A model generated the notes under the pieces. That model had not been told where the DNA came from. It searched no databases and worked only from the letters and a program-made list of their open reading frames with translations. From Owenia fusiformis (lineage: Eukaryota), in contig CAIIXF020000001.1 in assembly GCA_903813345.2 (NCBI GenBank), positions 3,162,001-3,226,000 on the forward strand: 64,000 nt of DNA, written 5' to 3'. The position numbers and the translations under genes were made by a program. Positions 19,612-62,770 of the stretch are shown here, piece after piece (within the stretch, counting starts at the first letter, position 1; every line of letters starts with the position of its first letter).

Positions 19612-19868
19612 TTATCCCCGTCGTGGAGGCGAGATTGGTTCTGGCCTTGCTCGGCCCCTAATATTTCGTCCACCCATCCTATTGGACCTTGTCTGGAAGC
19701 CACATGGCACCATAAACGCAGGCAGACATTTCTTTTCCTCATTACTGAACGTATATCCCCCCTGGCACTCCCTATGTGTGATCTCATTGTTAAAACATTC
19801 AATATATTTTCTACAAGATGGGTCTGCTTTGTCTATCACCATTACCTTTAAATTAGGGCATTGCATAT
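19612..19868 (-). CDS. Gene B terminal coding exon: chitin-binding type 2 (CBM14/peritrophin-A) domain + Arg/Gly/Pro tail
   Basis: Six Cys spaced C-x14-C-x5-C-x9-C-x12-C-x7-C with the typical aromatics (KYIEC, GYTF), then [33 protein letters not shown]. Confidence 0.88.
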
Positions 19869-61800: not shown

Positions 61801-62770
61801 ATTAAATGTACATGTATAGTTTTTTACATTTACCTTCTGCATCTTTAACTTTATCTGGGACACATTTAGTTTTATCTCCATCATATTTGCCACCAACTTC
61901 ACATGTACGACCTTTTGACCCAAGTAATTTATACCCAGGCAGACAATCGAATATAAAATAGGATCCTACATATCCAGTTCCAGGAGTACTTATAAGACCA
62001 TTTTTTGGAGCAGTCAAAGGCTCACATTTCCACACTATAATGAAAAGATGGTTGTCGGAATGATGGCAATGTCTAATAAAGATGCAGATTATACTTTATA
62101 TACCCAACAGGGATAACTGAGGTGATCATTGGAATATGAGGGAGCTCTTTCAATTTTACATCAAAAAGTGCATTTTGTGCCTTTTTGGCATACACATTAA
62201 ATATCAATGAAGGTGTACTTTTTTCATAATACATGCTACATGTTGTATTATCTATAACATACCACATTTATTTTGTTCACACGTATTCCCTTGGGGTTTT
62301 GAGCAGTCACTGTCAAGTTCACATCCTGTATCTTCTGTTGGCACTCCTTTAGTTTTTGCTGGTTTTGATACCTTGTTTGAACATTTGCAATTTGAGCATG
62401 TACCAATGGCACAATCAGAGTCTTGAATACAAGCATCACCTTCAATACCAAATGAATATGATTTAAACTTGTGTATGACAATTTAATAAAGTATTACAAC
62501 ACATGCAAAATAAAGCCAGATTATTCTTGATTTGTAAATTTCTTCTGTAAGTTGATTTTATAGAAGGTGATGAAAAGTAAAAATGTTTACCTTTAGGTTC
62601 ACATGTTGCAATTATTTGTTTATTCCAGGATCCATTTGATCTGCATTTCAGTTTTGAAGATCCTTTTGCAACATAACATTCATTACATTCAACAACTGCT
62701 CTGCAATCAGGCTCATAGCAATCCACTACTACTTTTCCGTTGCTCGGATTTTCTAAGAGAGGACATGTTT
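19612..62770 (-). CDS. Gene B (spliced, 34 visible coding exons, 5' end beyond window): large, probably secreted sushi/CCP + Cys-rich + 28x EGF-like + 2x sushi + chitin-binding type 2 protein
   Basis: Chain of minus-strand exons bounded by AG/GT, each internal exon phase 1-1 and a multiple of 3, joining into one open frame that ends at the TAA at 19612-19614. Domains recognised by Cys spacing. Confidence 0.9.
20145..20750. mobile_element. Helentron/HINE-like element (family 1)
   Basis: Same head (GATAACAGCAACGCCAAAGCGTAGCAAATCC) and tail hairpin (TATCCCTCCGAACTTCGTTCGATGGGATA). Confidence 0.65.
20779..20973 (-). CDS. Gene B exon: sushi/CCP 5
   Basis: [11 protein letters not shown]...[30 protein letters not shown]; 195 nt. 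Confidence 0.9.
21248..21449. mobile_element. hAT-like MITE with CAGGCCCG termini and 5-bp TSD ATCAG
   Basis: ATCAG|CAGGCCCGTAACCAGG...CCTGGCATCGGGCCTG|ATCAG. Confidence 0.7.
21479..21664 (-). CDS. Gene B exon: sushi/CCP 4
   Basis: CVPPRTPSG...[30 protein letters not shown]; 186 nt. Confidence 0.9.
21956..22072 (-). CDS. Gene B exon: EGF 28
   Basis: [39 protein letters not shown]; 117 nt. Confidence 0.9.
22197..22750. mobile_element. Tc1/mariner-type MITE with ~180-bp imperfect TIRs and TA TSD
   Basis: TA|CAGGGTGGTCAAATAAAATGGCAACCCTG ... CAGGGTTGCCATTTTGTTACCACCCTG|TA. Confidence 0.85.
22897..23010 (-). CDS. Gene B exon: EGF 27
   Basis: [38 protein letters not shown]; 114 nt. Confidence 0.9.
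23523..23636 (-). CDS. Gene B exon: EGF 26
   Basis: [38 protein letters not shown]; 114 nt. Confidence 0.9.
25520..27540. repeat. Tandem ~330-340-bp repeat (~3.6 copies) interrupted by a HINE-like insertion
   Basis: Unit AAAGC(C/T)GAT...GTTGTAAACTTCAAAA recurs at ~25541, 25881, 27018 and 27349. Confidence 0.85.
26200..27004. mobile_element. Helentron/HINE-like element (family 1 subtype), no TSD
   Basis: Homologous to 55411-56015; (GACT/GACG)n and TATCCC..GGGATA hairpin; its removal restores the host repeat. Confidence 0.75.
27631..27744 (-). CDS. Gene B exon: EGF 25
   Basis: [38 protein letters not shown]; 114 nt. Confidence 0.9.
27939..28052 (-). CDS. Gene B exon: EGF 24
   Basis: [38 protein letters not shown]; 114 nt. 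Confidence 0.9.
28557..28673 (-). CDS. Gene B exon: EGF 23
   Basis: [39 protein letters not shown]; 117 nt. Confidence 0.9.
28886..28999 (-). CDS. Gene B exon: EGF 22
   Basis: [38 protein letters not shown]; 114 nt. Confidence 0.9.
29254..29367 (-). CDS. Gene B exon: EGF 21
   Basis: [38 protein letters not shown]; 114 nt. Confidence 0.9.
29663..29776 (-). CDS. Gene B exon: EGF 20
   Basis: [37 protein letters not shown]; 114 nt. Confidence 0.9.
30508..30654 (-). CDS. Gene B exon: EGF 19 (extended C1-C2 loop)
   Basis: [48 protein letters not shown]; 147 nt. Confidence 0.88.
31066..31182 (-). CDS. Gene B exon: EGF 18
   Basis: [39 protein letters not shown]; 117 nt. Confidence 0.88.
31416..31529 (-). 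CDS. Gene B exon: EGF 17
   Basis: [37 protein letters not shown]; 114 nt. Confidence 0.9.
31770..34564. mobile_element. CMC (CACTA/EnSpm-like) non-autonomous element with 44-bp perfect TIRs and TGCAACC subterminal repeats
   Basis: CCCTTATAAAAAATTCAACCTTGAAAGTCCGAATTTAAACCGTT at left and its exact reverse complement at right; many TGCAACC (left) and GGTTGC (right) motifs. Confidence 0.75.
33233..33310. repeat. 21-bp minisatellite TTTTAATTAGCTGTTCAACCG x ~3.7
   Basis: Read directly. Confidence 0.9.
35960..36073 (-). CDS. Gene B exon: EGF 16 (Ca-binding type)
   Basis: [38 protein letters not shown]; 114 nt. Confidence 0.9.
36434..37517 (+). mobile_element. Internally deleted mariner transposon (1084 bp)
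   Basis: TA TSD; 41-bp TIRs CGAGGGGTGATTCAAAAGTAATGGACAAA... with one mismatch; transposase C-terminus inside. Confidence 0.92.
36722..37168 (+). pseudogene. Mariner transposase C-terminal fragment
   Basis: [10 protein letters not shown]...[22 protein letters not shown]...GGEYIED motifs; HTH domain and first catalytic Asp missing. Confidence 0.9.
37660..37773 (-). CDS. Gene B exon: EGF 15 (Ca-binding type)
   Basis: [37 protein letters not shown]; 114 nt. Confidence 0.9.
37995..43284 (-). mobile_element. piggyBac-like DNA transposon, 5290 bp, non-autonomous
   Basis: TTAA|CCCTTTGAGTGCC ... GGCACTCAAAGGG|TTAA (13-bp perfect TIR, TTAA TSD), GGCCGA subterminal motifs, decayed transposase C-terminus. 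Confidence 0.85.
38731..39090 (-). pseudogene. Decayed piggyBac transposase C-terminus including the Cys-rich domain
   Basis: [15 protein letters not shown]...[13 protein letters not shown], frameshift, then [44 protein letters not shown]. Resembles piggyBac core end plus CRD (recognised from memory, not searched). Confidence 0.65.
43831..43956 (-). CDS. Gene B exon: EGF 14
   Basis: [41 protein letters not shown]; 126 nt. Confidence 0.88.
44639..44755 (-). CDS. Gene B exon: EGF 13
   Basis: [39 protein letters not shown]; 117 nt. Confidence 0.88.
45278..45394 (-). CDS. Gene B exon: EGF 12
   Basis: [39 protein letters not shown]; 117 nt. Confidence 0.88.
46703..47695 (-). mobile_element. 5'-truncated non-LTR retrotransposon (LINE): ORF2 C-terminus, 3'UTR and tail
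   Basis: ORF 46982-47725 with [47 protein letters not shown] (CCHC-type C-terminus); AATAAA then (AT)n tail at ~46703-46725. Confidence 0.85.
47873..47986 (-). CDS. Gene B exon: EGF 11
   Basis: [37 protein letters not shown]; 114 nt. Confidence 0.9.
48626..48748 (-). CDS. Gene B exon: EGF 10
   Basis: [40 protein letters not shown]; 123 nt. Confidence 0.87.
49921..50490 (+). mobile_element. Tc1/mariner-type non-autonomous element
   Basis: TA|CAGGGTGGGCAAAAAAAAACGCCACTTTTTT start, degenerate inverted copy near 50460-50490, second copy at 3480-3927. Confidence 0.65.
51014..51148 (-). CDS. Gene B exon: EGF 9
   Basis: [44 protein letters not shown]; 135 nt. Confidence 0.85.
52139..52288 (-). 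CDS. Gene B exon: EGF 8
   Basis: [49 protein letters not shown]; 150 nt. Confidence 0.85.
53118..53246 (-). CDS. Gene B exon: EGF 7
   Basis: [42 protein letters not shown]; 129 nt. Confidence 0.85.
53412..53648 (-). CDS. Gene B exon: EGF 5+6 (two repeats in one exon)
   Basis: [17 protein letters not shown]...[20 protein letters not shown]...GTTCTLRAP; 237 nt. Confidence 0.85.
53721..53915 (-). pseudogene. Two decayed copies of the basic EGF exon (pseudo-exons)
   Basis: 53721-53820 has small deletions and an in-frame TAA; ~53872-53915 is truncated with its acceptor changed to CCG. Confidence 0.75.
54565..54975. repeat. ~3 degenerate copies of the satellite unit also found at 57535-58685
   Basis: GGTCAATT..AAGCAAGTTGAAA..GACCTTGAGAA..TCATTGAAGGTCAAAT..AGTCAGATTTGAA motif series. 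Confidence 0.85.
55049..55165 (-). CDS. Gene B exon: EGF 4 (paralog of EGF 2)
   Basis: [38 protein letters not shown]; 117 nt; TAGTAG tandem acceptor. Confidence 0.88.
55411..56015. mobile_element. Helentron/HINE-like element (family 1 subtype)
   Basis: Homologous to 26200-27004 at head, body and tail. Confidence 0.7.
56253..56396 (-). CDS. Gene B exon: EGF 3 with Gly/Ala/Thr linker
   Basis: [47 protein letters not shown]; 144 nt. Confidence 0.88.
57328..57449. repeat. ~120-bp imperfect hairpin
   Basis: TCGAATACACCCC..CTAGGCACAAA pairs with TTTGTGCCTAG..GGGGTGTATTCGA; outer GACC..AGAGCA pairs with TGCTCT..GGTC. Confidence 0.75.
57507..58906. mobile_element. Helentron/HINE-like element with ~9 satellite units (mostly ~125-150 bp) and a duplicated terminal hairpin
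   Basis: AAAATGTCACCACC head, tandem array at 57535-58685, GGACGCCAACC microrepeat, 48-bp terminal unit with an 11-bp stem present twice. Confidence 0.75.
59066..59182 (-). CDS. Gene B exon: EGF 2
   Basis: [38 protein letters not shown]; 117 nt. Confidence 0.88.
59840..60135 (-). mobile_element. Probable tRNA-derived SINE (degenerate)
   Basis: Minus strand TAGCTCAGCAGT (A-box-like) and GATTCGATCCC (B-box-like) at tRNA spacing, followed by a non-tRNA body. Confidence 0.45.
60597..60710 (-). CDS. Gene B exon: EGF 1
   Basis: [37 protein letters not shown]; 114 nt. Confidence 0.88.
61343..61537 (-). CDS. Gene B exon: sushi/CCP 3
   Basis: [11 protein letters not shown]...[15 protein letters not shown]; 195 nt. 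Confidence 0.9.
61834..62034 (-). CDS. Gene B exon: sushi/CCP 2
   Basis: [12 protein letters not shown]...[16 protein letters not shown]; 201 nt. Confidence 0.9.
62263..62439 (-). CDS. Gene B exon: two CxxDxDC Cys-rich motifs
   Basis: [20 protein letters not shown]...[21 protein letters not shown]; 177 nt. Confidence 0.88.
62591..62770 (-). CDS. Gene B exon: sushi/CCP 1 (7 Cys)
   Basis: [59 protein letters not shown]; 180 nt. Confidence 0.9.

Follow-up and report, generated by a model that had tools for sequence, protein, structure and literature searches.

We focus here on a gene carried by the minus strand of a 64,000-nucleotide stretch of the genome of the annelid Owenia fusiformis (contig CAIIXF020000001.1 of assembly GCA_903813345.2, forward-strand positions 3,162,001 to 3,226,000; hereafter the window, numbered from its first letter), which is AT-rich DNA with a GC content of 0.29-0.39 per 2 kb. 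Thirty-four exons, running from 62770 down to 19612, join to form a single reading frame that stays open over all of its 1,588 codons. We read the product, at a probability of about 0.55, as a large extracellular mosaic of at least 1,588 residues, specified by a single gene, in which a long array of EGF repeats would tether a head of sushi and Cys-rich modules to chitin.

The exon chain is regular throughout. An AG acceptor precedes all 34 exons and a GT donor follows each of them except the last; the splice phase is 1-1 at every join (two leading bases and one trailing base per exon), and the length of each internal exon is divisible by 3. The acceptor of the first recognisable exon lies at 62770 and the stop codon ends at 19612. 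The domain order is sushi, a Cys-rich exon, two sushi, 28 EGF, two sushi, CBM14 and a basic tail, which places 8 Arg among the 29 residues that follow the last Cys. The spliced product contains 206 Cys (13%), and its highest Kyte-Doolittle value over 19 residues is 0.89, so that no transmembrane helix is present. An original prediction, made from the DNA letters alone, had described a spliced frame of about 1,590 residues with this order and number of domains, a basic tail and no transmembrane helix; all of this is borne out, coordinates included, and Pfam supports each domain type save the Cys-rich exon. The Pfam scan covered 35 candidate minus-strand segments and one plus-strand open reading frame (ORF). 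It was extended to the minus-strand ORFs of at least 48 amino acids (aa) between 7942 and 63722, 142 in all, from which the CBM14 ORF itself was left out; none of the other 141 matches a family at E <= 0.001, and thus no further module-encoding exon is evident. The exons are listed below, from the 5' end of the gene, with the 3' untranslated region (UTR) at the end; P0001 is an annotated partial protein and X16 a set of contigs, both described further on, and predicted X16 depths assume cover of exons only.

62591-62770, minus: sushi 1, the earliest exon that can be recognised, with coding sequence still missing upstream of it; Pfam Sushi 25.6 bits, 7 Cys
62263-62439, minus: Cys-rich module with two CxxDSDC units and a Lys/Pro/Thr linker, 9 Cys in all; no Pfam family
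61834-62034, minus: sushi 2; Pfam Sushi 29.9 bits; AG/GT, phase 1-1
61343-61537, minus: sushi 3; Pfam Sushi 22.5 bits; AG/GT, phase 1-1
60597-60710, minus: EGF1; Pfam EGF 27.7 bits
59066-59182, minus: EGF2; Pfam EGF 28.0 bits
56253-56396, minus: EGF3, with a Ser/Thr/Gly linker ahead; Pfam EGF 39.2 bits
55049-55165, minus: EGF4; Pfam EGF 34.1 bits
53412-53648, minus: EGF5 and EGF6 in one exon; Pfam EGF 69.5 bits over 2 stretches
53118-53246, minus: EGF7; Pfam EGF 34.6 bits
52139-52288, minus: EGF8, with a Thr/Gly/Ser tail; Pfam EGF 40.8 bits
51014-51148, minus: EGF9, the most divergent repeat; Pfam EGF 20.0 bits (cut-off 21.5), E 8.2e-4; six-Cys pattern
48626-48748, minus: EGF10; Pfam EGF 23.3 bits
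47873-47986, minus: EGF11, the first with Ca-binding-type motifs; Pfam EGF 35.8 bits
45278-45394, minus: EGF12; Pfam EGF 33.1 bits
44639-44755, minus: EGF13; Pfam EGF 27.1 bits
43831-43956, minus: EGF14; Pfam EGF 32.1 bits
37660-37773, minus: EGF15; Pfam EGF 32.6 bits; X16 bin depth 10.4 against 9.1 predicted
35960-36073, minus: EGF16, Ca-binding type (cbEGF); Pfam EGF_CA 34.2 bits (cut-off 27)
31416-31529, minus: EGF17; Pfam EGF 37.5 bits
31066-31182, minus: EGF18; Pfam EGF 32.0 bits
30508-30654, minus: EGF19, with a long first loop; Pfam EGF 29.0 bits; X16 depth 13.6 against 13.6 predicted
29663-29776, minus: EGF20; Pfam EGF 37.1 bits; X16 depth 10.4 against 9.7 predicted
29254-29367, minus: EGF21; Pfam EGF 38.0 bits; X16 depth 11.8 against 11.4 predicted
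28886-28999, minus: EGF22; Pfam EGF 38.2 bits; within an X16 depth bin
28557-28673, minus: EGF23; Pfam EGF 39.0 bits; within an X16 depth bin
27939-28052, minus: EGF24 (cbEGF); Pfam EGF_CA 36.3 bits; X16 depth 17.4 against 17.4 predicted
27631-27744, minus: EGF25; Pfam EGF 43.1 bits
23523-23636, minus: EGF26; Pfam EGF 40.7 bits
22897-23010, minus: EGF27; Pfam EGF 38.4 bits
21956-22072, minus: EGF28 (cbEGF); Pfam EGF_CA 30.0 bits; contained in P0001
21479-21664, minus: sushi 4; Pfam Sushi 27.7 bits; junctions the same as in P0001
20779-20973, minus: sushi 5; Pfam Sushi 42.1 bits; donor at 20779 set by P0001
19612-19868, minus: last coding exon, with CBM14, the 29-residue Arg-rich tail and the stop; Pfam CBM_14 31.1 bits; genome match of an X16 contig starts at 19868
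19492-19611, minus: 3' UTR of at least 120 nt; X16 contig colinear with the genome over 19868-19492, through the stop codon

The C-terminal module carries the proposed link to chitin. The last exon matches CBM_14 (PF01607) at 31.1 bits against a cut-off of 22.1 (E 2.6e-7), over profile positions 1-53 of 53, and its spacing, C-x14-C-x5-C-x9-C-x12-C-x7-C, has six Cys that are conserved without exception in an alignment of 26 sequences that includes short CBM14 matches. With that alignment, AlphaFold2 (AF2) gives a model of the exon with a mean predicted local distance difference test (pLDDT) of 78.8, in which a core of five strands scores 80-95 and the Arg-rich tail, at 53-64, is probably disordered. 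In a Foldseek comparison of the model with PDB, ranks 1-10, 12 and 15 are all CBM14-type modules (probability 0.77-1.00; template modelling (TM) score on the target up to 0.82; root-mean-square deviation 0.9-2.9), among them Der p 23 (TM 0.79 on the target), the CBM14 of human chitotriosidase, Aplysia EHEP and Blo t 12, as well as Avr4 (including its complex with chitin hexasaccharide), Der f 23 and tachycitin. A sequence search of solved structures also returned squid beak chitin-binding protein 3 (E 0.005) and a dust-mite allergen (E 0.027); matches to the EGF domains of factors IX and X in the same search were set aside as chance. Profile score, Cys framework and predicted fold thus all mark the last exon as a bona fide CBM14 module, as had been proposed under the name of chitin-binding type 2 domain, and this end of the protein would be expected to bind chitin.

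The other modules, except for one, also match known families. All five sushi segments exceed the 20.7-bit cut-off of Pfam Sushi (PF00084). The sushi, or CCP, framework consists of four Cys with a conserved Trp ahead of the last; as read from the translations, this Trp is found in two of the five exons (sushi 1 and sushi 5), and sushi 1 has 7 Cys, not 4. All 27 EGF segments match PF00008 at E <= 8.2e-4, and 26 of them lie above the 21.5-bit cut-off, EGF9 falling short at 20.0; since one segment holds two EGFs, the repeats number 28. A six-Cys regular expression for EGF, run over the whole window, finds 28 matches on the minus strand (27 in the gene and one in a paralog) and none on the plus strand, and the one repeat of the gene that it misses, which has a longer first loop, is picked up by Pfam. 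Weak Pfam matches to hEGF and EGF_DL_JAG are also present in the repeats. The Cys-rich exon, on the other hand, matches no Pfam family even at E <= 10, and its AF2 model, built on a 2-sequence alignment, has a mean pLDDT of 50.3. In both paralogs sushi 1 contains 7 Cys and the adjoining Cys-rich exon 9 (62263-62770 and 5149-6468); two odd counts with an even sum hint at a disulfide that would link sushi 1 to the Cys-rich module.

Independent support for the 3' half of the chain comes from annotation and from sequencing runs. P0001, deposited as 'unnamed protein product, partial [Owenia fusiformis]', is 250 aa long and has EGF, Sushi and CBM_14 domains. It matches the CBM14 exon at 100% identity and coincides with the last 250 residues of our model junction for junction; the joins from EGF28 through sushi 4 and sushi 5 to CBM14 are thus reproduced by an independent gene model. 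Four sequencing runs were mapped over 19000-38999, namely three runs of raw RNA-Seq reads and X16, a contig set tentatively taken to be RNA; the readout covered 8 of 1,279 contig pieces and 15 of 487 joints. One X16 contig (2,232 letters, depth 61.8) matches 19868-19492 over its letters 1844-2220, a single mismatch apart, so that its genome match begins at the predicted CBM14 acceptor; its other 1,843 letters lie elsewhere and, from the summed exon lengths, would run from sushi 5 back into EGF16. In five repeat-free bins over 27671-31005, the X16 depth is 17.4, 25.4, 11.8, 10.4 and 13.6, and cover of exons only, at a depth of 61.8, predicts 17.4, 21.4, 11.4, 9.7 and 13.6. There is thus good support for a spliced molecule that joins EGF repeats to sushi 4, sushi 5 and the CBM14 exon, its exon content being deduced from the bin depths. 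The few RNA-Seq reads on clean exon bins have their first mate almost wholly on the plus strand, which fits a minus-strand RNA in a common type of stranded library. Much of the mapped region is filled by interspersed repeats (19000-19500, 20150-20750, about 21290, 24012-24051, 26337-27003 and 34341-35007, with copies at 5400-6200 and 18400-18750), which in each of the three RNA-Seq runs reach depths in the hundreds and show numerous back-joints and loose ends. These expressed repeat families swamp the gene's own RNA signal. A (GGAC)n tract adjoins 20686-20709.

The 5' end of the gene is incomplete in our model, the window holding 1,230 bases upstream of the first recognisable exon. A second copy of the head, on the same strand and running off the left end of the window, is informative here. 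We refer to the main gene as copy A and to this paralog as copy B:

about 3309-6468, minus: tandem paralog, copy B, with the exons for sushi 1, Cys-rich module, sushi 2, sushi 3 and EGF1; blastn identity 80-89% over the exon blocks

Both copies have the same TTTCAG acceptor at the sushi-1 exon. In copy A this exon has no Met and is closely preceded by an in-frame TAG; the sushi-1 exon is therefore not the first to be translated. The sole Met-initiated hydrophobic reading of copy B (MIGMGYYFIISA) had been taken as a signal peptide supplied by the paralog. This claim is withdrawn, since the reading crosses the conserved acceptor at the place where copy A has its TAG; the stretch is most likely intron. 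Weak candidates for a first exon lie at 63311-63242, upstream of copy A, and at 9729-9627, upstream of copy B. The latter is a Met-initiated hydrophobic segment on the minus strand with a phase-1 GT donor of weak score, 3.2 kb upstream of the sushi-1 exon of copy B, and is possibly the signal-peptide exon of the paralog. With the signal peptide gone, the earlier description of the protein as probably secreted loses its stated basis, and it is the exclusively extracellular, disulfide-rich nature of the domain types that still points to secretion.

Comparison of the two copies also bears on the constraint on the head. All five shared exons keep their AG/GT borders and open frames, and two of them differ by in-frame indels of 3 nt. 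Across the three ungapped exons, synonymous divergence (dS) is 0.29 and non-synonymous divergence (dN) 0.061, a dN/dS of 0.21, and the Cys-rich exon is 86% identical in amino acids between copies; the head, including the Cys-rich exon, is thus under purifying selection. Upstream of the sushi-1 exon, the copies remain similar for about 65 nt.

The EGF array consists of two unlike parts. EGF1-10 have no Ca-binding motifs, and the linkers between them, rich in Ser/Thr/Gly, reach 20 residues, whereas EGF11-28 have linkers of 4-9 residues and hold every Ca-binding signature in the array: the D/N-x-D/N-E/Q motif before the first Cys (11 of 28 repeats) and the Ca-binding-type motif between the third and fourth Cys (15 of 28). 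At E <= 0.01, EGF_CA (PF07645) is matched by 11 of the 27 EGF segments, all inside EGF15-28. The O-fucose consensus occurs in 15 of the 28 repeats and the O-glucose consensus in 6. The original prediction of a stiff rod of 28 EGFs hence holds at best for EGF11-28, the C-terminal two-thirds; the N-terminal third, judged by its linkers and motifs, is more likely a flexible, glycosylated string. Part of this third appears young. EGF5-7 show 87-91% identity, Tandem Repeats Finder reports a period of 108 nt with 89% matches over the exon of EGF5 and EGF6, and EGF5-8 are recent tandem copies. The intron upstream of the two-EGF exon contains further remnants:

53721-53921, minus: two decayed partial copies of an EGF exon (pseudo-exons); blastn identity 82-83% to the EGF7 unit, with in-frame stops

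The identity of EGF5-7 and these decayed copies together indicate recent duplication and decay of EGF exons in tandem.

We thus propose the following arrangement. The worm's own chitin fibrils would be the anchorage of the C-terminus, by way of CBM14; the chaetae are the only structure certain to be chitinous, with the linings of tube and gut as possible further sites. About 18 closely packed EGFs, largely of Ca-binding type, would form a rod that is probably semi-rigid and, on a standard per-domain length, in the region of 50 nm long, and would be continued by a probably flexible, O-glycosylated segment of about ten EGFs without Ca binding and with Ser/Thr/Gly linkers. The array as a whole would act as a disulfide-stapled spacer or as a load-bearing tether, at the far end of which the sushi and Cys-rich head would bind another matrix, cell-surface or self partner. 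Terminal modules that assemble or anchor a long EGF array would be a design shared with octovafibrin and the fibropellins, to which we return below. Chitin-synthesis genes of Owenia are expressed early, which fits its conspicuous larval chaetae (excerpt of bioRxiv 10.1101/2022.02.05.479245).

Several points weigh against this reading. Transcript evidence spans only about EGF15 to the 3' UTR, and the head and EGF1-14 are linked to the rest by their shared strand and phase and by there being no terminal exon in between. In the three RNA-Seq runs, which are labelled as from the same species and of each of which 6-12% was read, the clean exon bins have a mean depth of 0-3.6, and expression is therefore low or restricted in those three samples. 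A search for exons that open with Met and a hydrophobic stretch and end at a phase-1 donor yielded one weak candidate upstream of copy A and nine upstream of copy B, none of them convincing. The 27-bit cut-off of EGF_CA is passed by just 3 of the 27 EGF segments (EGF16, EGF24 and EGF28). Foldseek E-values for the CBM14 model range from 0.004 to 0.5 and none reaches 0.001, as expected for a domain of about 50 residues, and the top sequence match among solved structures is not a chitin binder; it is the polyphenol-binding, CBM14-like EHEP of Aplysia (8in3, E 5.2e-4). Finally, the tube lining of Owenia is a plywood of threads that the excerpted account does not state to be chitinous (PMC4375521).

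These points feed several other explanations. The limited reach of the RNA-derived evidence is what would be seen if the locus held two or more transcription units or isoforms, with the head and EGF1-14 separate from cbEGF15-28, sushi and CBM14, or with CBM14 as an alternative terminal exon. Public annotation offers the 250-aa partial protein alone, the Cys-rich exon is found in no word-indexed protein of 103-2000 aa, an intron of 5.9 kb separates EGF14 from EGF15, and the repeat type shifts along the array. We nevertheless hold such a split to be quite unlikely: all 34 exons share strand and phase 1-1, neither a Met-plus-signal exon nor a stop-bearing exon is seen between them, none of the 141 other ORFs carries a domain, the head exons of copy B are directly followed by an EGF exon, and fragmentary annotation is to be expected for a weakly expressed, repetitive gene. 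The EHEP match, for its part, raises the prospect that the CBM14-fold end binds a polyphenol, another glycan or a protein, and that the product is an EGF-array matrix component with no anchorage on chitin. EHEP is a 25-kDa polyphenol-binding protein whose complex with tannic acid (8in6) is among the fold matches, and the module is divergent, the 111 matching proteins other than P0001 (E <= 0.001) being at most 50% identical. The majority of the fold matches, on the other hand, are experimentally established chitin binders, and both the profile score and the arrangement of the six Cys are what is usual in CBM14. We hold a ligand other than chitin to be very unlikely.

Sushi domains are building blocks of complement regulators. 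On that footing, the protein could be a chitin-docked molecule of immunity or recognition, with CBM14 parked on host chitin of the gut or surface, or on fungal chitin, while the head binds microbes or regulates a complement-like thioester protein; the same logic of a head plus a C-terminal chitin-binding domain is found in the protochordate VCBPs (excerpt of PMC4757023), and this gene has undergone tandem duplication, with gain and loss of EGF exons, as immune gene families commonly do. Selection on the head, however, is purifying and not diversifying; Pfam finds no thioester, lectin or Ig domain in the exons or the 141 ORFs; and 28 EGFs are needless for an opsonin. We therefore rate this explanation as unlikely, and the earlier term 'complement-control-like head' denotes no more than the presence of sushi domains. 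A fragment of a receptor or ligand of the Notch, Delta or Crumbs type is hardly credible. The EGFs are Notch-like, with the O-fucose and O-glucose consensus counts and the weak hEGF and EGF_DL_JAG matches given above, but no LNR, NOD, DSL, laminin-G, transmembrane or ankyrin segment occurs in the 34 exons or the 141 ORFs, and the frame ends in CBM14 and a stop, with the X16 transcript colinear into the 3' UTR. Returning to the chitin-anchored tether, we may also carry it further, to a molecule invented in the annelid lineage whose conserved head would recruit or regulate a specific partner at the surface of chitinous structures (chaetae, tube lining or gut lining) and so couple chitin architecture to cell signalling or surface immunity, by way of a domain combination that has no described counterpart; such a partner could be a complement-like thioester protein, a surface receptor of the chaetoblast or the protein itself. 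We put this forward as a speculation, and a decidedly doubtful one.

Comparison with known systems shows that the design is familiar. Octovafibrin, the egg tether of Octopus bimaculoides, consists of 29 EGFs between two C-type lectin domains, the lectins assembling end-to-end and the EGFs bearing the load (excerpt of PMC10336842). On that description it is secreted, as the Owenia product would be, comes likewise from a lophotrochozoan, is similar in size and has a long EGF array between terminal modules of carbohydrate-binding type; it differs in its C-type lectin termini and in having no Ca-binding EGFs, where the Owenia gene has the motif in 11 of 28, a comparison made by architecture only. 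A Pfam search of the 34 exons and the 141 other minus-strand ORFs gave no C-type lectin match. Fibropellins, of the sea urchin apical lamina, have up to 21 EGFs between C1s-like and avidin-like domains (excerpt of PMC10336842); like the Owenia product they are described as extracellular mosaics with an EGF array, a non-EGF domain at the N-terminus and an assembly module at the C-terminus, but neither CUB (C1s-like) nor avidin domains are found in the same exons and ORFs by Pfam. VCBPs combine an N-terminal recognition head with one C-terminal chitin-binding domain and bind gut chitin fibrils and bacteria (excerpts of PMC4757023 and PMC2632668). The likeness lies in a head with a single C-terminal chitin-binding domain that docks on host chitin; the VCBPs, on the other hand, are small, have two Ig V domains and no EGF spacer, and share no homology beyond the chitin-binding domain, and no Ig domain was found by Pfam in the exons or ORFs. 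The terminal modules of octovafibrin and the fibropellins already flank an EGF array, so that the suggestion of an undescribed system was too strong (excerpt of PMC10336842). An EGF array with terminal binding modules is a known design; the combination of sushi, 28 EGFs, sushi and CBM14 is new.

The remaining families share single elements with the gene. Proteins of the peritrophin-A/CBM14 type (peritrophins, the obstructor/CPAP type, chitotriosidase, Der p 23, Avr4 and tachycitin) have the profile, Cys spacing and fold of the last exon; 108 of the 111 other proteins matched by the CBM14 exon match in 2-35 stretches, whereas the Owenia gene has one CBM14 at the end of an EGF/sushi protein of 1,500 residues. 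Notch, Crumbs, SVEP1 and the selectins are membrane-bound or contain LNR, laminin-G, VWA, pentraxin, HYR or C-type lectin modules, and SVEP1 has many sushi repeats where the Owenia gene has five. What they have in common with it are tandem Notch-like EGFs with O-glycosylation consensus and sushi adjacent to EGF. LNR, the heterodimerisation region, laminin-G, ankyrin, VWA, pentraxin and HYR were all sought without success in the 34 exons and 141 other ORFs, and the judgement that the gene is not Notch, Crumbs, SVEP1 or a fibropellin is upheld by this lack of their defining non-EGF modules. Dumpy has a ZP domain and membrane anchorage and no CBM14, and is related to the Owenia protein via EGF repeats alone. 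In Drosophila it is a giant EGF protein of the apical matrix that ties the epithelium to chitinous matrix (excerpts of PMC10597583 and PMC8520396).

Searches for relatives returned no protein of the same architecture. An exhaustive HMMER search with the CBM14 exon against 1.84 billion representatives gave 112 proteins at E <= 0.001, of which P0001 alone fell below 1e-30, the other 111 being 22-50% identical. Among 13 of these 111 chosen as long or unusual, Pfam finds CBM_14 in 11 and EGF or Sushi in none; two matches, P0006 (ankyrin/NTPase) and P0096 (kelch), lack CBM_14 and are put down to chance. A hidden Markov model (HMM) built from the 28 EGF repeats matched P0001 only among 114 stored proteins, and P0015, which was matched by a sushi HMM from this gene, shows CBM_14 only in Pfam. 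The Cys-rich exon gave 11 candidates among word-indexed proteins of 103-2000 aa, none significant; residues 38-250 of P0001, the sushi-sushi-CBM14 end, gave 2 significant matches of 210 in a word index of longer proteins, both generic multi-sushi proteins; and in the ESM Atlas the best feature scores with P0001 were 0.75-0.79, a lead level only, with none including CBM_14. A same-architecture ortholog, characterised or otherwise, was thus not found by HMMER or word-index searches, which used single-exon queries and in which annelid proteomes are perhaps thinly represented. Full-text searches of part of the literature likewise turned up no account of a single protein with all three of sushi, EGF and CBM14. 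Shell and tube matrices of lophotrochozoans repeatedly show EGF, sushi and chitin-binding domains, reported as domain repertoires or as separate proteins, and in the tube and shell proteomes so far chitin-binding and EGF proteins are entered as distinct molecules (excerpts of PMC13425148 and PMC8476170).

If this interpretation is correct, a key reference annelid has in its public gene set, as far as these searches show, only 250 aa of a gene product that reaches about 1,600 residues or more; the window also shows at least one tandem paralog of the gene. The protein would then be a concrete candidate for linking annelid chitin, in chaetae and perhaps in tube or gut linings, to matrix or cell-surface components, and CBM14 would be a third terminal-module solution for an EGF array with sticky ends, after octovafibrin and the fibropellins. 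It also suits study of the mechanical contrast between Ca-binding and non-Ca-binding EGF stretches. No new class of system is opened by it; the parts are familiar and the combination is new.

Three further features of the window lie outside the coding exons. At 15775-16334, on both strands, low-complexity sequence contains several open frames with Thr/Asn/Glu/Arg-rich and Val/Arg/Ser-rich translations, and no Pfam family is matched by the five minus-strand frames scanned. The intron between EGF11 and EGF12 holds an open frame of 267 aa on the minus strand (46982-47785), which matches no Pfam family and, judged by eye, could be the tail of a retroelement ORF. Within the intron between EGF15 and EGF16, a plus-strand ORF of 148 aa (36722-37168) matches the DDE_3 transposase family at E 2.7e-5 and 24.5 bits, below the cut-off of 28.6, and is probably a transposon remnant.

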